A stretch of DNA of 64,000 bases from an uncultured Candidatus Rokubacteria bacterium (lineage in GTDB: Bacteria; Methylomirabilota; Methylomirabilia; Rokubacteriales; CSP1-6), in NCBI GenBank assembly GCA_963721815.1, contig CAVRLO010000010.1:278257-342256 (forward strand), in the 5' to 3' direction. Positions 2,350 through 27,115 of this stretch are shown in pieces. The notes beneath the pieces were generated by a model, which was not told where the DNA came from, did not search any database, and saw nothing but the letters and a program-made list of their open reading frames with translations. Position numbers and translations under genes: made by a program. The number at the start of each line of letters is the position of its first letter. The stretch's first letter is position 1.

Positions 2350-2876
2350 CAGGCGCGCGAGCCCAGCGCCGCGGCGATCTTCTCGAGCTGACCCGCGTGA
2401 TCCAAGTCGTGGACGCGGATGAACAGGAGGGTCTCGCGCCAGTTGAGCAGGCCGAAGAACCCGTGGGAGATCGACTGCTCGAGCCGCGCGGCCGGGTCCG
2501 CGCGCAGGGCGCGATCGAACAGCTGCTCGCGATCCCGGTCGAGCATCGCGAGCCACTCCGCGGCGGTGTGGTTCGGCGCCGCCGGCCGCTCGGCGGCGTG
2601 GCGCCGCTCGCCCGGGGCAAGGCCGTCGAGCGCGCGCACGATCCCCTCGCCGAAGTGGCGCCCGGCGTCCACGACGTGGGCCATCACCTCGTTGGCGCTC
2701 CACTCACCCGGCGCGGGCGCCTGCGCGAACCCCGCGGCCGGGATCGCCATCGCCGCGGCGCGCAGGCGCTCCATCGCCTCTCGCACCTTGTCGACGATGG
2801 CTGCCGGCGTCAGCTTGGCGCCTTGCGCTTCCAGATAGCCGCGGATCCGCTTCTGCTCGTCTGTCATGGTGGTCAT
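2349..2876 (-). CDS. DinB/maleylpyruvate-isomerase-like (DinB_2) protein
   Basis: WSANEVMAHV and HDLDHAGQL metal-binding His pattern. Confidence 0.8.
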   Translation of the reverse strand: MTTMTDEQKRIRGYLEAQGAKLTPAAIVDKVREAMERLRAAAMAIPAAGFAQAPAPGEWSANEVMAHVVDAGRHFGEGIVRALDGLAPGERRHAAERPAAPNHTAAEWLAMLDRDREQLFDRALRADPAARLEQSISHGFFGLLNWRETLLFIRVHDLDHAGQLEKIAAALGSRA

Positions 2877-2884
2877 AGGGCTGG

Positions 2885-2914
2885 TTGTACCGCCGGGCGC
2901 ACCCGGCGCACAAG
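2885..2914 (-). repeat. 30-bp element duplicated at 9681-9710; promoter-like (TTGTGC-N18-TACAA)
   Basis: CTTGTGCGCCGGGTGCGCCCGGCGGTACAA vs CTTGTGCGCCGGGTGTGCACGGCGGTACAA, 28/30 identical. Confidence 0.7.
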
Positions 2915-2929
2915 TCGACCGCGATGGGG

Positions 2930-3931
2930 TCACGACGTCGAGTTGCGCCGGCCCCTGCGCACGCTGTCGAACGCCACGGCCACCACGATGAACGTGCCGA
3001 CGAAGGTGCCCTGCCAGAACGTGCTGATGCCGAGCAAGGTCAGGCTGTTACGAATGATCTCGATGAGCGCGGCGCCGACGACGGCGCCGAGGATCGTGCC
3101 ATGGCCTCCCGTCAAGTTCGCCCCGCCGATGACCGCCGCCGCGATCACGCTGAGCTCCATCGACTGGCCGAGATTGGTCGTCACGCCGCCGAGCCAGCTC
3201 GCCTCGAGGACGCCGGCCAGGCCGGCCATGAAGCCGGACAGCATGTAGATGCCGATCTTGATTCGCCTGACCGGGAGGCCGGTCAGGATCGCGGCGCGCT
3301 CGTTGCCGCCGACGGCCATGATCCTGGCACCCCAGCGCGTCCAGTTCAGCGCAAACCCAGTGGTCAGACAGCACGCCGCCAGCACCACGACCGGATTCGG
3401 AACGCCCAGGGTCGAGCCGCCACCCAGCCACAGGAAGAAATCATGGTCCGGACCGAATTGGTAGACCATCGTGTTCTGCGACGACACCATCGCCAGGCTG
3501 CGCGCGATCGACAGCATCCCAAGCGTGGCCACGAACGGCGGGATCCCGACGTAGGTGATCAGAGCGCCGTTGACCAGTCCAACCGCCAGCGCGGCGATGA
3601 GCCCGGCGGCGATGCCCACCCAGACGGAGGTCCCGGCGTGCAGCACGACGCCGGTGACCATCGCGGAAAGACAGAGGATCGAGCCGACCGACAGATCGAT
3701 GCCGCCGGTGATGATCACCGCCGTCATCCCGATCGCAACGATCGCCACGAAGGCGAAGTTACGGGTCACGTTGAACAGATTCTGCGGTGTGGCGAACGAC
3801 TCGGTCGCCAGCGACAGGACGACGGCGGCCAGCAGGGCGGCCGCCAGAACCCAGAACGCTTGCAGCCCGAGCACCCGCGCCAGTAGCCCGTGGCTCCGGG
3901 CCTCGATGGCGCGCTGAAGGTCGACCGACAC
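2930..3931 (-). CDS. Sugar ABC transporter permease (RbsC/CUT2 type)
   Basis: GGIDLSVG, PPFVATLG and ELSVIAAAVIGG motifs; hydrophobic. Confidence 0.93.
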   Translation of the reverse strand: MSVDLQRAIEARSHGLLARVLGLQAFWVLAAALLAAVVLSLATESFATPQNLFNVTRNFAFVAIVAIGMTAVIITGGIDLSVGSILCLSAMVTGVVLHAGTSVWVGIAAGLIAALAVGLVNGALITYVGIPPFVATLGMLSIARSLAMVSSQNTMVYQFGPDHDFFLWLGGGSTLGVPNPVVVLAACCLTTGFALNWTRWGARIMAVGGNERAAILTGLPVRRIKIGIYMLSGFMAGLAGVLEASWLGGVTTNLGQSMELSVIAAAVIGGANLTGGHGTILGAVVGAALIEIIRNSLTLLGISTFWQGTFVGTFIVVAVAFDSVRRGRRNSTS

Positions 3932-3933
3932 GC

Positions 3934-4674
3934 TCAGGCCTCCGCGATCGCGCCCGTGATGAGGCCGGTCACTTCCTCGGGGCTGGTCGATGCGATCGCC
4001 TTGTCGGCGACCTTCGCGCCGCGGCGCAGGACGATGATGCGATCGGCCACCGCGAACACGTCGGGCATGCGGTGGCTGATCAACACGACGGCGATGCCCT
4101 GATCGCGCAGCCGCCGTACCAGGCTCAGCACCTCGGCCACCTGGCGCACTGAGATCGCCGCCGTCGGCTCGTCCATGAGCACGATCCTCGGATCCGAGAG
4201 CCGCGTCCGGGCGATCGCAACGGCCTGACGCTGGCCGCCGGACATGTTGCGAACGACGTCTCGCGGCCGCGTCTCGGACTTCAGCTCCGTGAACAGCTCG
4301 GCGGCGCGCCGGCTCATCGCCGTGAAGTCGAGCACGCGCAGCGGGCCGATCCAGCGCGTGAGCTCGCGGCCCATGAAGATGTTGATGGAAGCCGGCAGGT
4401 TATCGCAGAGCGCCAGATCCTGGTAGACGATCTCGACGCCGCGCTCGCGGGCCTCCGCGGGCCGCGCGAACACGGCCGGCTTTCCGTCGACGAACAGCTT
4501 GCCGGCCGTGGGCGGATAGTTGCCGGCCACGATCTTGACCAGGGTGGATTTGCCGGCGCCGTTGTCGCCCATGAGCCCGACGACCTCGCCGGCCGAAATG
4601 GTCAACGAGACATCGTCGAGCGCGTGGATCGCGCCGAAGTGCTTCGAGATTCCCCGGCATTCCAGGATCGGCAT
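3934..4674 (-). CDS. Sugar ABC transporter ATP-binding protein (single domain)
   Basis: GDNGAGKST Walker A, MSGGQRQ signature, MDEPTA; GGAGGG RBS before ATG 4674. Confidence 0.93.
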   Translation of the reverse strand: MPILECRGISKHFGAIHALDDVSLTISAGEVVGLMGDNGAGKSTLVKIVAGNYPPTAGKLFVDGKPAVFARPAEARERGVEIVYQDLALCDNLPASINIFMGRELTRWIGPLRVLDFTAMSRRAAELFTELKSETRPRDVVRNMSGGQRQAVAIARTRLSDPRIVLMDEPTAAISVRQVAEVLSLVRRLRDQGIAVVLISHRMPDVFAVADRIIVLRRGAKVADKAIASTSPEEVTGLITGAIAEA

Positions 4675-4841
4675 CCAGTCCCTCCACCGCGCCGGCGACA
4701 ACGAAAGCCGCCGAATCGGTCGTCAGATGATAACGGAATGCCGGTCGTCTTGACCGTCGATCGGCGGCTTCGCTACACTCCGCGCCAGACTCGACCGCTC
4801 GACACGGGTGCGAGCCGCTACTCTCACAAGGGAGTGAGACC

Positions 4842-5828
4842 ATGACAACGCTCGTCGGGCTGGCCGTTGCATTCCTCCTGTCGGTCGTCGCGCAACCCGC
4901 ACACGCTCAGGACAAGACCCTGGCCATCGTGGTCAAGGGGCTCGACAATCCGTTCTTCGAGCAGATCAATCGCGGCTGTCAGAAGTGGAACGCCGAGAAC
5001 AAGGGCAAGGGCTACACCTGCCTCTACACCGGGCCGGCGTCCAGCGCCGACGAGGCCGGTGAGGTTCAGATCGTGGACGACCTCTTGACCAAGGGCGTTG
5101 CCGCGATCGCGATCTCGCCCTCCAACGCGCCGTTGATGGCGAATCTCCTGAAGAGGAAGGCGCCGAAGATTCCGGTGATGACGATCGATGCCGACCTCGC
5201 GAAGGAAGACGCCGGGCTGCGGAAGACCTACCTCGGGACCGACAACTACCTGATGGGCGTCAAGTTCGCCGAGTATCTCAAGAAGTTCAAGCCGAAGGGC
5301 GGGACCGTCTGTCTACAGCTCGGCAACGTGGCCGCGGACAACATCAATGCGCGCGCCGCCGGCACCCGCGACACCTTGGCGGGCGCCAAGGGAACCAAGC
5401 GGCTGACCGGCCAGAACGGCTGGACGGAAATCAACGGTTGCCCGGTCTTCACGAACGACCAGGCCGACCTCGCCAACCGGCAGATGGCCGACGTCTTCAC
5501 CGCCAATCCCAAGCTCGATGCGTTCGTACTGGAAGGCGGCTGGGCCCAGTTCGCGCCCCAGGCCTATTCGCAGGTCACCGGTCAGGTGATAGAGAAGCTG
5601 AAGAGCAAGGCGCTCGTGATCGTGGCCGGCGACACGTTGCCCCCGCAGCTGGAGGCGCTGAAGGCGGGGCGAAGCCATGTCCAGGTCGGGCAGCGCCCCT
5701 TCGAGATGGGCTATCGCGCGCCGTCCGTGATGATCGACCTGATCAACGGCAAGAAGGTCGAGCCGGTGATCTACACCGGCCTCGACGAGTGCACGCAGGA
5801 CAATCTCGCCACCTGCATCGCCAAATGA
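4842..5828 (+). CDS. Sugar ABC transporter substrate-binding protein (RbsB-like)
   Basis: Signal peptide AHA-Q; KGLDNPFF, GTDNY and GQRPFEMG motifs. Confidence 0.92.
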   Translation: MTTLVGLAVAFLLSVVAQPAHAQDKTLAIVVKGLDNPFFEQINRGCQKWNAENKGKGYTCLYTGPASSADEAGEVQIVDDLLTKGVAAIAISPSNAPLMANLLKRKAPKIPVMTIDADLAKEDAGLRKTYLGTDNYLMGVKFAEYLKKFKPKGGTVCLQLGNVAADNINARAAGTRDTLAGAKGTKRLTGQNGWTEINGCPVFTNDQADLANRQMADVFTANPKLDAFVLEGGWAQFAPQAYSQVTGQVIEKLKSKALVIVAGDTLPPQLEALKAGRSHVQVGQRPFEMGYRAPSVMIDLINGKKVEPVIYTGLDECTQDNLATCIAK

Positions 5829-5878
5829 CTCGCATTCGCCGCGATGAACGCCGGGCGGGCCCGGTTTGCGGTGCGGGA

Positions 5879-5895
5879 ATTACCTCGGAGGTAAT
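5879..5895. promoter_or_regulatory. Palindromic operator, copy 2 (ATTACCTCGGAGGTAAT), between convergent genes
   Basis: Identical to the copy at 9841-9857. Confidence 0.65.
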
Positions 5896-5918
5896 CACGT
5901 GGGCGGAGAGGTCTTCGT

Positions 5919-6854
5919 CTAGCGGCTCCGCAGCCGAGGATCCAGAAGGTCGCGCAATGCGTCGCCCAGCATGTTGAAAGCCAGCACCACGATGCTGATC
6001 GCCGCACCGGGAAAGATCGCCAGATGGAGCGCCGTCTCAAGATTCCGCCGACCCTCCCCGCTCAACATCGCGCCCCAGGTCGGAGTGGGCGGCGGCGTTC
6101 CCAGCCCGAGGAAGCTCAACGCGGCCTCGATGACGATGGCATTTCCCAGCCACACGGTCGCGATGACCAGAATCGGCGCGAACACATTCGGTAGCACGTG
6201 TCGCGCCACGATCCGAGCCGGCGAGGCCCCCAAGGCCTGCGCCGCATCGATGAACGTGTGCTGCTTGATCGCGAGCACGGTGCCCCGGACGACCCGCGAG
6301 GCTCCCGGCGCGATCACCAGCGCGATGACGAGAACGATGTTGGTAAGGCTCTGTCCCAGCACCGACATCACCGCCAGGGCCAACACGATCCCTGGAATCG
6401 CCATGGTTGTATCGACGCCCCGCTGAATGACCTGATCCAGCTTCCCCTCCCAGTACCCGGACACCAGCCCGACGACCGTGCCGAGCAGAGTCCCGATCAT
6501 CACCGACGCGAGCCCCACGACGAGCGATACCCGCGCCCCGTAGACGATCCGACTCAGAACATCCCGCCCGAGTGGATCCGTCCCCAACGGGAACGCGGCG
6601 GTGGGTGCCTGCATGCGAATCGGCAACCCGCGCTCGTTCAGATTGAACTCGTAGGGGTCCCGGGGCGCCAACACCGGAGCCAGAATCGCGACGACGACCA
6701 GCCCGAGGACGATCATCGCGCTCACCGCGCCGAGCGGCTTGCGCCGCGCGAGCAGCCACACCACGCCCCAGGCATGCCGCAGGGCGATGAGTGGCCCCAC
6801 CCCCCCAGGCGACACTTCGGGTGCCGCGTCAGCGGTAACGGATTCGCGGATCAA
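5919..6854 (-). CDS. Peptide/nickel ABC permease (DppC-like)
   Basis: LGTDPLGRDVLSRIVYGARVSL; EAALSFLGLG; start position uncertain. Confidence 0.93.
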   Translation of the reverse strand: MIRESVTADAAPEVSPGGVGPLIALRHAWGVVWLLARRKPLGAVSAMIVLGLVVVAILAPVLAPRDPYEFNLNERGLPIRMQAPTAAFPLGTDPLGRDVLSRIVYGARVSLVVGLASVMIGTLLGTVVGLVSGYWEGKLDQVIQRGVDTTMAIPGIVLALAVMSVLGQSLTNIVLVIALVIAPGASRVVRGTVLAIKQHTFIDAAQALGASPARIVARHVLPNVFAPILVIATVWLGNAIVIEAALSFLGLGTPPPTPTWGAMLSGEGRRNLETALHLAIFPGAAISIVVLAFNMLGDALRDLLDPRLRSR

Positions 6855-23453: not shown

Positions 23454-24657
23454 ATGGACGCCTGGTGGCAGTGCGAAATCCCGTATCCGTTCGTGCCGCA
23501 GGAGGTGCTCGACGCGCGCGGACTCGGTGCGCGCCAGCCTGCCGAACAAATACTGCGACCCGAAGATCGCCGCCGATCTGTTCGAGGAAGTCATGGACGA
23601 GTTCCTGCTGTGCGACGACCTCGGGCTGAACGTGCGTGGCGATCGAGCATCACGCCGGCATCAACTCGCTGCTCGGCGCCAATCCGCTGTCGCTCGGCAT
23701 CCTCGCGCGTCAGACGCGACAGGTGCGGATCCTGAGCCTCGGCACGCTGATCTCCCTGCGCCAGGATCCGGTGCGGGTCGCGGAGGAGTACGCGACCGCC
23801 GACGTCATCTCGCGCGGGCGCCTCGAGATCGGGTTCGTCAAATCGGGCGGCAGCGAGATGGCGTCGAACAACGCGAACCCCGTCGAACAACGTCGAGCGC
23901 TACTGGGAGGCGATCGACCTCATCACGAAGACGCTCAGCCATCACGACGGGCCGTTCAGCTGGGAGGGCAAGCACTACACCCATCGTCACGTCAACATCT
24001 GGCCGCGTCCGTGGCAGCAGCCGCATCCGCGCATGTGGTCGGCCACCGGCGATCCGGAGACCGCCGCCGAGGTCGGCCGGCGCGGCATGGTCCACGTGCT
24101 CGTGCTGCGCGGACCGGAGGGCACCAAGCGGGCCTACGCCGCGCATCGCAAGGCGCGCGCCGAGGCCGGCTTGCCGAAGGTGACCACCGACAACTTCGCC
24201 TACGCCGCCTTCGTCTACGTCGGCGACACCGACGAGGAAGGGATGCGGGTCGGCAGCAAGCTGCTGTGGTTCCTGAACACGAGCCTCAAGTCGGCGCCGC
24301 AGTACTCGAAATTCCTGCCCGGCGGCGCGCCGCCGCAGGCCGCGCCGCAGGTCTATCGCACGGCGCCCACGGAGCGGGACCGGCACGGGAACGATGACGG
24401 CCAGCCAGAACGCCGCCCGGCTGACGGCGCTCAGCGCCGAGCAGGCGATGGCGCAGGGCATCCTCTTCGCGGGCAATCCCGACAGCGTCTACCGGCAGAT
24501 CATGGAGTTCTACGACAAGGTCGGCGGCTTCGGCCATCTGTGCCTGGTCGGCCGCTCGGGCTTCATGACCCACGCCGAATCGGAGAAAGGCATCCGCCTC
24601 TTCTCGAAGGAGGTCCTGCCCCGCCTTCGCGAGATCAAGGCCGTCACCGCGGACTGA
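23454..24657 (+). CDS. LLM-class oxidoreductase with several frameshifts
   Basis: Pieces AIEHHAG, RVAEEYATADVISRGRLEIG, WPRPWQQPHP and IRLFSKEVLPRL lie in different frames. Confidence 0.78.
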
Positions 24658-24671
24658 GGCCCGCTCGAGCC

Positions 24672-25463
24672 TCAGCGCCCAGTGAAGCGCGGCGGCCGGT
24701 GCTCGCGGTGGGCGGCCATGCCTTCGTCGACGTCCTGGCTCCATTCCAGCGCGTAACGAAGGGCGTCGGCCAGCGCGCGCGAGGCCGCGAAGCCGGCGGC
24801 GTTGCGGACATTCATGATGCGCTTGGCCCCTCGCGTGGCGAGTGGGCCGCTGGCCGAGATCCGGGTGGCCAGCGCCTGGGCTTCAGGGAGCAGTCGCGCC
24901 GCCGGATGAACCGCGAGCACGAGCCCCAGCCTCTCCATCTCGGCCGCGTCGATCTCGCGACCCGTGCAGATCAACTCCAAGGCGCGCGCCCGGCCGACGA
25001 TACCCGGGAGGCGAACCGGACCGCCGGCGCCCGGAAATCCGCCCCAGAGCGCCTCGGGCAGCGCGAACGTCGCGTGCGCCGCCGCCAGCCGGATATCGCA
25101 CGCGAGCGACAGCTCGGCCGCGCCGGCGCGCGCGGCTCCGTTGAACGCCGCGATCACGACCTGCGGCAAGGCTTCGATCGCGTCGTAGAGCCGGTTCGCG
25201 ATGCGGACGAGCTCGAGGATCTGGTCTTTCGTGTAGCCGGCGCGAACGACCGGATTCAGGATGCCCATCGAGAAGCACTCGGCGCCGGCGCCGGTGATGA
25301 CGATCGCCTGCGTCTCTTCGTCGGCGCCGAGGCGATCGACGAGCCCTTGTAAGGTCAGCAGCACGTCGCGGGTCAGGCGATTCTGATCGCCCGGCCGGTC
25401 GAGAGTGATCGTCATGGTGCGGCCGTCGCGCGCGACCCGGACTTCCTCCGTTCCTGGCGTCAT
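24672..25463 (-). CDS. Enoyl-CoA hydratase/isomerase (crotonase) family protein
   Basis: [18 protein letters not shown]...PGAGG, PPRFTGR terminus. Confidence 0.9.
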
Positions 25464-26132
25464 CCACGCTCTCCTGTGAGCAGCCCGCCGAAGATTCGGG
25501 CGCCGAGCTTGAAGCCTTCGGCCAGCGTGGTGCCGGCGCCTTCCGCCGCCGGATTCTCGGCTCGCCACGCTCGCAGGTGATCTTCCGACCGGAAGAAGTT
25601 GATCGTCGTTCAGAGAGAGTCGGCGATCTTGCACCGGTCGTCGGCCCGCTGACCGATCCACAGCATGATGCGCGACCCTTCCGGGCTCGCGCCCTCCGGC
25701 GTGGCCGCGAGCTCGAGGGGTACCCCGCAGTGGTGGCAGCGCGATCGGATCTCGATGGCTTGCCCGATCATCGGCGCGATGCCGAGCGCGTCCACGGCGC
25801 AGCAGGCGAACCGTTCTCCGCCGTCGCGCAACCGCACGACGAATGGCGTGGCCGGCGCGGAAAAGGGATACGCCATGTCGATCATCCCGTCCCGGATGCG
25901 GATCAGGTCGCCATCGTCCAGCGCGGCGAGCGCCCGGCGCATTGGCGCAGCCTCGCCGTCAGCAAAGCCGGCCAGCATCTCCTGCACTGGGAATCGGGCC
26001 GCCTCGTTCCAGGAAACGCTGCAGAACGAATCGGGACGCGGCGGTTTCCCGCGCGGCCCGGCGATCCCGCCAGCGGTGTTCCAGGTCGAGCGCCGCGAAT
26101 TCGTCGGCGCTCTTGATCTCGAGGCTCGCCAC
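25460..26132 (-). CDS. merB: MerB-like organometallic lyase, predicted selenoprotein (UGA at 25612-25610); one 1-nt frameshift near 25990
   Basis: [15 protein letters not shown] (MerB CxxD), SRCHHCG, then DSL-UGA-TTINFF and 49 codons after the UGA ending in an ATGA overlap with the crotonase; AAGGAGGG RBS. Confidence 0.8.
25579..25609 (-). promoter_or_regulatory. Putative bacterial SECIS hairpin
   Basis: UCUUCC-GGUC-GGAAGA stem-loop starting 13 nt after the UGA; G-first apical loop 19 nt downstream. Confidence 0.7.
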
Positions 26133-26230
26133 GGCTTCCCTCCTTGTGTCGCCGCGGCTCGGGCCGCGACGCACCGGCTTCTGTCCCGCCAGGGAGCAGG
26201 ATAAACTCTGGCGCAAGCCAGGAGGGCGCG

Positions 26231-27115
26231 ATGTACGAGGGCTTCCGCCGCTTCGATATCCAGACCAGCGATCCGCAAGTGACCATCCGCGGTGTGGTGG
26301 GTGGCGCGGGGCCGCCGGTCCTCCTGCTGCACGGCAATCCGCTGACGTACTACCACTGGCGATTCGTCGCGCCGCGACTGGCGAACGACTTCACCGTGGT
26401 CGCGACCGACCTGCGCGGCTACGGCGACAGCGGCAAGCCGCGCGGCTTGCCCGATCACAGTAACTACTCGTTCCGCCGCATGGCGCAGGATCAGGTGGAC
26501 GTCATGCGAGACCTCGGCTTCGAGCGATTCATGGTCGCGGGCCACGATCGGGGCGCGCGCACCGCCTATCGCATGGCCCTCGATCATCCGGCCGCGGTGC
26601 GGAAGCTCTGCGCCATCGACATCCTGCCGACCCACCACGTGTGGACACACGTTACGCGCGAATGGGCGCTCAACAGCTATCACTGGGCCTTCATGGCGCA
26701 GCCCTACGATTTCCCCGAGCGCCTGCTCGCCGGCAAGGAGGAGTACTACATCCGACTCAAGCTCGGCTCCCAGGGCATGGGCAAGGGTGGGTTCGCCGAG
26801 GACGCGATCCAGGAGTACCTGCGGTGCTGCACGCCCGAGAACATCCACGGGGTGTGCGAGGACTACCGCGCCGGAGCCACGATCGACTACGAGATGGACA
26901 GGAAGGACCTCGAAGCCGGCCACAGGATCGCGTGCCCGGTGCTCGTGATCGTCGGCGGCCAGAGCCACACCGCGAAGTTCTACGGCTACGAAAAAGCCTG
27001 GTCGACCTACGTCAGCAATCTGGTCGGCTGCATCGCCCTACCCTGCGGCCACTACCCCGCCGAACAAGCCCCCGAAGCAACCTACGAACAACTCCACAAA
27101 TTCTTCACCTCCTAA
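26231..27115 (+). CDS. Haloacetate (fluoroacetate) dehalogenase-like alpha/beta hydrolase
   Basis: DLRGYGDS, YSFRRMAQD, GHDRGAR (Asp nucleophile), YHW, EDYRA and CGHY. Confidence 0.88.
   Translation: MYEGFRRFDIQTSDPQVTIRGVVGGAGPPVLLLHGNPLTYYHWRFVAPRLANDFTVVATDLRGYGDSGKPRGLPDHSNYSFRRMAQDQVDVMRDLGFERFMVAGHDRGARTAYRMALDHPAAVRKLCAIDILPTHHVWTHVTREWALNSYHWAFMAQPYDFPERLLAGKEEYYIRLKLGSQGMGKGGFAEDAIQEYLRCCTPENIHGVCEDYRAGATIDYEMDRKDLEAGHRIACPVLVIVGGQSHTAKFYGYEKAWSTYVSNLVGCIALPCGHYPAEQAPEATYEQLHKFFTS

Follow-up and report, generated by a model that had tools for sequence, protein, structure and literature searches.

Background

Selenocysteine (Sec, U) has been described at the active site of one relative of the organomercurial lyase MerB. 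As far as the preprint by Haft and Gwadz describes it, SaoL (NCBIfam NF040728) is a MerB-like organometallic lyase selenoprotein, in which Sec162 of a C-U dipeptide aligns with Cys159 of MerB, and its gene serves as marker of the SAO locus of nine genes, described from anaerobes such as Clostridioides difficile (bioRxiv 10.1101/2022.07.06.499078). SaoL is the only MerB-like selenoprotein named in the accessible parts of two reviews. Here, a candidate for another protein of this kind is analysed. It is specified by a MerB-like gene in a 64,000-nt stretch of contig CAVRLO010000010.1 (assembly GCA_963721815.1) from an uncultured bacterium of soil metagenomes, annotated as Candidatus Rokuibacteriota; this whole stretch is referred to as the window. 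The gene contains an in-frame TGA codon at the position corresponding to Cys159 of MerB. In the original prediction, made from the nucleotide sequence, this codon had been proposed to specify Sec, and SaoL had been named as a precedent, which the preprint bears out. Our analyses indicate that the gene is very probably a conserved selenoprotein gene, in which UGA at the Cys159-equivalent position is read as Sec.

A published description of this family was not found, and SaoL was the sole MerB-like selenoprotein encountered; closed supplements and the study of Deng et al. may list the family. The main texts of deep-Sep (PMC12013277) and BSepDB (PMC13326102) contain neither "MerB" nor "mercur", and their supplementary tables may include it. 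A metagenome-assembled genome of Methylomirabilota with 63 predicted selenoprotein genes has been reported in the groundwater study of Deng et al., as cited in a review of 2026 (PMC13188914).

Organization of the MerB-like gene

The gene is located on the minus strand at 25460..26132. It starts with GTG at 26132, preceded a few bases upstream by a Shine-Dalgarno-like AAGGAGG motif, ends with a TGA stop codon at 25462-25460, and comprises 223 codons plus stop once one extra base is removed. Because of this base, at 25987..25988 (CCC-A-GTG), the assembled sequence has the first 48 codons (25989..26132, VASLEIKS...ERGGPIP) in a frame different from that of the remaining ones. When compared to residues 1-48 of P0002, a database homolog of 173 amino acids, this N-terminal part agrees at 45 of 48 positions. 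The remaining 175 codons (residues 49-223, 25463..25987) cover the MerB catalytic domain including the predicted Sec codon and the tail, if TGA is read as Sec. A C-A-V-D motif is encoded at 25790..25801, with the equivalents of Cys96 and Asp99 of MerB at 25801-25799 and 25792-25790, respectively. The Cys117 equivalent follows 21 residues after that of Cys96 (25736..25738) and corresponds to the cysteine of an invariant C132-H133 pair in the numbering of L015, an intact relative. The in-frame TGA (25610..25612) is codon 174 of the corrected protein and is followed by a tail of 49 codons (25463..25609, ending in GERG), which aligns with MerB residues ~160-199 in the C-terminal part of the fold. 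The stop codon of the gene overlaps the ATG of a downstream crotonase gene as ATGA (25463-25460).

All sequence statements of the original prediction were confirmed. SRCHHCG and the other quoted motifs are present on the minus strand, the TGA is found at 25612-25610, and the frame is open for 49 further codons up to the overlap with crotonase. The statement that gene callers split the gene has to be changed, since they rather truncate it. The closest database entries are 173 amino acids long, one of them being named [quoted passage not shown], and the entry for the window's own gene has 110 amino acids.

Relationship to MerB and SaoL

Read through the TGA, the window protein matched the Pfam MerB family (PF03243) with 105.2 bits, the cut-off being 27 bits. 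The match extended over profile positions 1-126 of 126 and spanned the TGA. L015, which is 75% identical to the window protein, scored 103.8 bits. The best matches among solved structures, obtained with phmmer against the PDB, were to E. coli MerB (1s6l/3f0p family, E ~3e-10). This alignment pairs C-A-V-D with Cys96 and Asp99, the RSRC cysteine with Cys117, and the TGA with Cys159. None of these four columns varies among the 38 sequences of a family alignment (A1); the second cysteine of CHHC and the cysteine of DDRC are not invariant. Of the catalytic triad Cys96/Asp99/Cys159, the first two equivalents are thus kept, and position 159 is TGA here and cysteine in the Cys forms described below.

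For structure prediction L015 was used, and the two frames of the window gene were not joined for folding. The AlphaFold model of L015 reached a predicted local distance difference test (pLDDT) value of 89.5 and a predicted template modelling score of 0.88. In Foldseek searches of the PDB, the top 11 matches to this model were all MerB or MerB2 with template modelling (TM) scores from 0.51 to 0.75, 0.62-0.75 for crystal structures and 0.51 for a nuclear magnetic resonance model. Apart from MerB and MerB2, nothing was detected in this search with E below 0.06. These comparisons support the assignment of the window protein as a MerB-fold member of the MerB superfamily with a predicted Sec at the second catalytic thiol. 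By analogy to MerB, an organometallic substrate would be held through its metal or metalloid atom by the cysteine of C-A-V-D together with the selenolate, and protonation of the leaving carbon would fall to the aspartate.

With canonical MerB (E. coli plasmid R831b; 1s6l, 3f0o, 3f0p, 3f2f; MerB2, 5c17), the family shares the fold over ~200 residues, as judged from the L015 model, the invariant equivalents of Cys96, Asp99, and Cys117, and an F-F motif past the second catalytic residue. It differs by an identity of ~21-23%, by the predicted Sec in place of Cys159, and by the absence of Cys160. The models for canonical MerB, NF009710 and NF033555, gave 55.7 and 43.3 bits for the window protein (62.3 and 43.6 bits for L015), while their cut-offs are 193 and 200 bits. 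No mer operon was found in the window's genome, and parts of one are present in some relatives.

SaoL has the MerB fold, Sec at the Cys159 position, and the equivalents of Cys96 and Asp99 in common with the window protein, as far as the preprint describes it. The SaoL model, which has a cut-off of 140 bits, yielded 55.7 bits for the window protein and 58 bits for L015, and the match covers model positions 9-127 of 159, short of the C-terminal part. The predicted Sec follows leucine or phenylalanine in the window family, (L/F)-U, and cysteine in SaoL, C-U. Crotonase and alpha/beta hydrolase genes are neighbours here and mer-like genes in relatives, in contrast to the nine-gene SAO locus. Genes of an SAO neighbourhood (the ABC transporter SaoB/SaoP/SaoX, SaoC, SaoE, SaoT) were not seen among the immediate neighbours, to which annotation was confined and for which the Sao family models were not searched. 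These neighbours in relatives include sigma/anti-sigma, MerR-like, MerTP-like, glutaredoxin-like, LysW-like, and MerA-like genes. The hosts are also different, Candidatus Rokuibacteriota from soil metagenomes here and, in the available description of SaoL, anaerobes exclusively. Judged by score, motif, and neighbourhood, the window protein is not a member of SaoL.

Conservation of the TGA codon and of the tail

A search of 61 related genomes of the same order gave matches in 44, and nearly every matching row held exactly one TGA within the match. All 40 rows with E <= 1.3e-33 were read at the sequence level; the 21 weaker rows were left out. TGA is present at the Sec column in 38 of these 40 loci and is followed by a conserved tail of ~48 residues. 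The other two loci have TGC, specifying cysteine. Recurrence of TGA at one column in 38 out of 40 loci is far beyond chance. The sequence context in the TGA-form loci is (S/G)(L/F)-TGA-T-x-(I/L)-N-F-F-R-S-E, the residue ahead of the TGA being leucine in 37 and phenylalanine in one. Either cysteine or TGA at this column together with a conserved tail had been named beforehand as the pattern to look for in homologs, and this is what was obtained, with cysteine in the more distant ones.

Cysteine occupies the column in all five full-length database homologs (P0084, P0086, P0087, P0096, P0108). Together with the two TGC loci, L028 and L031, these Cys forms are 43-52% identical over the full length and share the N-terminal domain, the tail, and the context ...C-x3-N-F-F-R-S-E..., but they have TGC at the column and, at the first catalytic motif, A-V-C in place of A-C-C. 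More distant homologs with cysteine at the column are P0148, P0150, P0151, P0152, P0164, P0165, and P0169. Neither cysteine nor Sec was found at the column in P0138, P0162, P0011, and P0062. P0138 and P0162 are degenerate and lack both catalytic cysteines, and in P0062 the segment around the column is absent. P0011, a metagenomic entry, has serine at the Sec column and a shifted tail thereafter.

The family profile has matches at E <= 1e-10 in 131 of the 251 genomes of the phylum. The large majority of the phylum rows listed contain exactly one TGA, and the rows without stop come mainly from two other families of the same class. Among 1.84 billion cluster representatives, 3045 proteins match the profile at E <= 0.001. 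Counted by hand, some 29 of the 150 best matches stop exactly at the profile position ahead of the Sec column and are thereby recognisable as truncated gene calls. The codons of the tail were compared in the 31 TGA-form genes with definable start and end. At conserved glycine, alanine, glutamate, and leucine residues of the tail, third positions vary freely, which is the signature of a translated tail.

RNA-level constraint downstream of the TGA codon

A hairpin, UCUUCC-GGUC-GGAAGA, begins 13 nt past the UGA (25581..25596). Its stem strands are located at 25596-25591 and 25586-25581, and the loop GGUC at 25590-25587, all within the codons for F-F-R-S-E-D. Both the hairpin and its spacing had been predicted correctly. 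In the whole window, TGA-N13-TCTTCCGGTCGGAAGA has a single match (25581-25612), the chance expectation being 0.01. A likeness to bacterial selenocysteine insertion sequence (SECIS) elements had also been claimed, and the geometry fits the bSECIS model as given in the available text of PMC13188914: a loop of 3-9 nt with G in the first two loop positions, a stem of 4-16 bp, a distance of 16-37 nt from the UGA, and a minimum free energy of -7.5 kcal/mol or lower. With its 4-nt loop GGUC, a stem of 6-7 bp, and 19 nt between UGA and loop, the window hairpin agrees with the model. The folding energy is -10.1 kcal/mol for a stretch of 53 nt; the hairpin alone has -7.3 kcal/mol in the window and -8 kcal/mol in the RNAalifold consensus. 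In that consensus of 37 TGA-form sequences, a stem of seven pairs with the loop GGUC is retained.

Synonymous sites were inspected in the 31 genes mentioned above and appeared frozen from the codon ahead of the UGA through the end of the hairpin. The leucine codon ahead of the UGA is CTC in 30 of 30 cases, both phenylalanine codons are TTC (31/31), arginine is CGG (31/31), and serine is TCG (29/29). The glutamate codon of the hairpin is GAA in 26 of 31 genes, despite the high G+C content of the gene. Elsewhere in the gene, the share of the top codon is 0.40-0.62 at conserved arginine, 0.52-0.81 at leucine, and 0.75 at the other serine column. This synonymous-site pattern is strong evidence for a constraint acting on the hairpin at the RNA level. 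In both Cys-form loci, L028 and L031, the hairpin stretch is altered in amino acids and nucleotides, and the hairpin is broken.

A longer lower stem, pairing the codons for T-T-I with those for L-R-A-W, was indicated by folds of single sequences but dropped; its register differs between clades, and RNAalifold discarded the pairing. In alignments with metagenome and metatranscriptome contigs, a pile-up was observed at 25572-25606, where contigs that are otherwise unlike match over ~33 nt only. It coincides with the invariant segment between UGA and hairpin, which is common to divergent relatives in the same samples.

Selenocysteine machinery

The presence of selA, selB, selC, and selD had been suggested as a check on the genome, and all four were detected. 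selA (E 1.2e-149), the selB wing domain, and tRNA-Sec (69.8 bits) are clustered on contig C20. The selD gene is located on contig C31 at 86322-87259 (locus L052, genome G000) and has its own in-frame Sec codon (SCAG-U-ASK), past which a hairpin with the loop GAUC is spaced as in the MerB-like gene. SelB in complex with Sec-tRNA(Sec) would be expected to recognise the hairpin located inside the F-F-R-S-E codons of the MerB-like mRNA. Sec would then be inserted at the UGA, and translation would run through 49 more codons to the stop overlapping the crotonase start.

SelA was detected in 55 of the 61 related genomes, and the 33 genomes with a strong TGA-form match are all among these. One of the two Cys-form genomes has SelA, and the other, which is 98% complete, does not. 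Since the genomes are close kin, this co-occurrence is taken as a consistency check only.

Frameshift and alternative explanations

The frameshift at ~25988 offers a first alternative, a strain-level pseudogene in which the inserted base is real and the gene decays in the way selD appears to, which in the assembly is also split, with at least four frame changes in ~1 kb. An indel near 25990 had been suspected to be an assembly error, and both this site and the TGA at 25610 were compared to contigs of four public runs aligned on 25300-26300. These contigs represent near-identical strains, not the source reads. The extra base is left out at 25987/25988 in all of the covering depth of three independent runs (8.33/8.33 in X1, 2.62/2.62 in X3, 16.6/16.6 in X6), as it is in all seven close relatives shown, and the TGA codon is unchanged in the bridging contigs of X1, X2, and X6. 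Apart from this site, the gene shows no disruption, and it shares 84-90% identity with intact relatives. The frame changes in selD and the low completeness of the assembly, which consists of 31 contigs and was scored 66% complete, suggest that it is prone to indels and would point to errors of this kind rather than to decay. Judged by these alignments, the frameshift is most likely an assembly error, and a pseudogene is very unlikely. An assembly rich in indels would also account for the completeness score of 66%. One of the runs is a metatranscriptome, the contigs of which cover the MerB-like gene and the junction to crotonase, a weak hint of transcription.

The TGA could otherwise be a true stop, leaving a truncated MerB-like product of ~173 residues and an untranslated crotonase leader of 49 codons. 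Public gene calls read the sequence in this way, as the 173-amino-acid "organomercurial lyase" entries and the ~29 cluster representatives ending there attest, and the stability of the hairpin is unremarkable. A product ending at the TGA, however, would be missing one of the invariant catalytic residues of the family. In 38 of 40 loci, the tail is maintained at the protein level with variation at synonymous sites, and it aligns to the C-terminal part of solved MerB structures as well as to Cys-form homologs without a stop. A true stop is therefore very unlikely. Decoding of UGA as a standard amino acid (cysteine, tryptophan, or glycine), by near-cognate tRNAs or in a reassigned code, has nothing specific in its favour and is likewise very unlikely: TGA in the ATGA overlap is the gene's own stop, a complete set of Sec genes is present, the column is cysteine in homologs without TGA, and RNA-level constraint is observed exactly at the place expected for a bacterial SECIS element.

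Several observations weigh against a functional selenoprotein. The hairpin does not fold better than shuffled sequences (z = +1.08; an equal or better fold is reached by 177 of 200 shuffles), so that stability was not used as evidence. None of the seven stem pairs shows a compensatory change, the sole variation being six U-A to U-G changes; the structure thus rests on invariance, and covariation is uninformative. The FFRSEE motif is conserved as protein in the Cys forms also, and the nucleotide contrast with these forms comes from two loci only. An Rfam scan of 25400-25700 with E up to 10 returned no SECIS family, only a chance match to a small RNA. In the L015 model, the loop with the Sec position is the only stretch of low confidence (pLDDT 53-66). 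A weaker TGA-form match occurs in a genome, G027 (88% complete), in which SelA was not found. The frameshift in the MerB-like gene and the changes in selD, if real, would preclude the protein. MerR-like, MerTP-like, and close MerA-like genes were not found by tblastn in the window's genome, 66% complete, which extends the earlier remark that merA, merR, and merT are missing nearby to the genome as searched. Finally, Sec insertion, lyase activity, and the kind of substrate are what we infer from sequence comparisons, and this was counted on the same side. Weighed together with the conservation of TGA, tail, and hairpin, these points leave a Sec-containing MerB-like protein as the very probable product of the gene.

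Gene neighbourhoods in related genomes

Since mer partner genes were not found in the window's genome, the substrate of the window protein is uncertain. It had been suggested that the substrate may not be organomercury, but orthologs in some relatives adjoin MerR-like, MerTP-like, and MerA-like genes, and an organomercurial may well be the substrate. In five loci, a divergent regulator of the MerR family is located upstream; its best NCBIfam match is MerR with 129 bits, below the cut-off of 151. In two genomes from different genera (L058 and L059), an ortholog with 52-54% identity is part of a cluster of five genes on the same strand, located on the minus strand at G039:C3 ~3177-6755 and G051:C116 ~4144-6566, respectively. 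An extracytoplasmic function (ECF) sigma and anti-sigma pair lies upstream of the former. All five consecutive genes carry an in-frame TGA at the position of a cysteine motif, and together they may form a mer-like operon dependent on selenium. They specify a MerT-MerP-like fusion with GMT-U-x-x-U (GMT-U-GS-U; UxxU_metal_bind, 92.2 bits, cut-off 95), the MerB-like protein with U at position 159 (SL-U-T), a glutaredoxin-like protein with U-x-x-C (YTQPG-U-xxC), a LysW-like zinc ribbon with (U/C)-P-N-U (D-U/C-PN-U), and a MerA-like flavoprotein with C-x4-U (GTCLGxG-U-IPKK). The flavoprotein scored 352.8 bits with the MerA model, for which the cut-off is 454, and 349.5 bits with a lipoamide dehydrogenase model. 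A Pfam search with the MerT-like neighbour found nothing as long as its TGA codons were taken as stops, and reading through them was required for its recognition. A true MerA (571.7 bits) adjoins a divergent relative of the TGA form in a third genome.

The neighbours related to the UxxU metal-binding (seleno)protein NF041115 and to the MerTP fusion NF033556 are proteins different from the MerB-like one. Their presence beside the ortholog indicates that the lineage puts Sec in further proteins handling mercury-type metals. Proteins of these types were found neither beside the window's gene nor elsewhere in its genome, where a search with NF041115 detected an ordinary HMA domain only. Taken together, the neighbourhoods in relatives support an involvement of the family with a mercury-type metal or organometal. 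An organomercurial substrate of the window's copy is about as likely as not. More speculatively, the lineage might possess a selenium-dependent detoxification of mercury or organometals distinct from clostridial SAO, in which selenolate ligands of the five-gene cluster would pass the metal from protein to protein. In this tentative and rather doubtful scenario, the window's copy, now outside such a cluster and translationally coupled to crotonase, may have been recruited to cleave another carbon-metal(loid) bond in an acyl-CoA-linked pathway.

A number of further arrangements were noticed in related genomes. MerA-like or disulfide reductase genes of ~445 residues with one in-frame TGA are common, and in L058, L059, and L061 TGA replaces the second cysteine of the redox-active C-x4-C motif of MerA-like genes. 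LysW-like open reading frames (ORFs) upstream of the MerB-like gene in L025 and L045 have TGA for the last cysteine of the C-P-N-C knuckle; an all-Cys version of the zinc ribbon is present in L048. In L042 (G054:C5, oriented 2854-4434), the MerB-like frame continues without stop into the downstream ORF, 527 codons in total. The added part may be rhodanese- or sulfurtransferase-like. In loci related to L042 in the same genus, the MerB-like gene adjoins genes for an ECF sigma factor, an anti-sigma factor (zf-HC2 plus bactofilin), and an E1 dehydrogenase.

Implications for databases and surveys

If UGA is decoded as proposed, public databases list a widespread protein from an uncultured and abundant lineage of soil bacteria in a form cut short at a catalytic residue. 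Any merB survey that requires Cys159 would miss the family, and inactive-looking fragments would be counted in surveys relying on length or annotation. The family would represent a second lineage with Sec at the metal-binding position of MerB-type enzymes, unlike SaoL in motif, ecology, and gene context, and exchange of Sec and cysteine at the site of carbon-metal lyases would be a recurring theme. The natural Sec/Cys pairs within the subfamily could reveal what selenium contributes in terms of nucleophilicity, affinity for soft metals, and product hand-off. Mer-like clusters of five selenoproteins would tie the availability of selenium in soil to the turnover of mercury or organometals.

Adjacent genes in the window

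The downstream gene (24672..25463, minus strand) specifies an enoyl-CoA hydratase (crotonase; Pfam ECH_1, E 2.1e-42). Upstream of the MerB-like gene and outside of it, a divergent alpha/beta hydrolase gene is located on the plus strand (26144..27115), which is given for context. The order hydrolase, MerB-like gene, crotonase was detected in eight of the 40 loci, all belonging to one genus, with the hydrolase in L015 represented by a fragment match of 30 residues only. Conserved gene context was therefore rejected as a clue to function, since an arrangement limited to these loci does not define the family. The best NCBIfam match of the hydrolase at 26144-27115 is haloalkane dehalogenase with 60.4 bits, far under the cut-off. 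At 23527-24657 on the plus strand, two or three adjoining ORF pieces resemble one gene broken by frame changes, which, to judge from the sequence by eye, may specify a luciferase-like monooxygenase.

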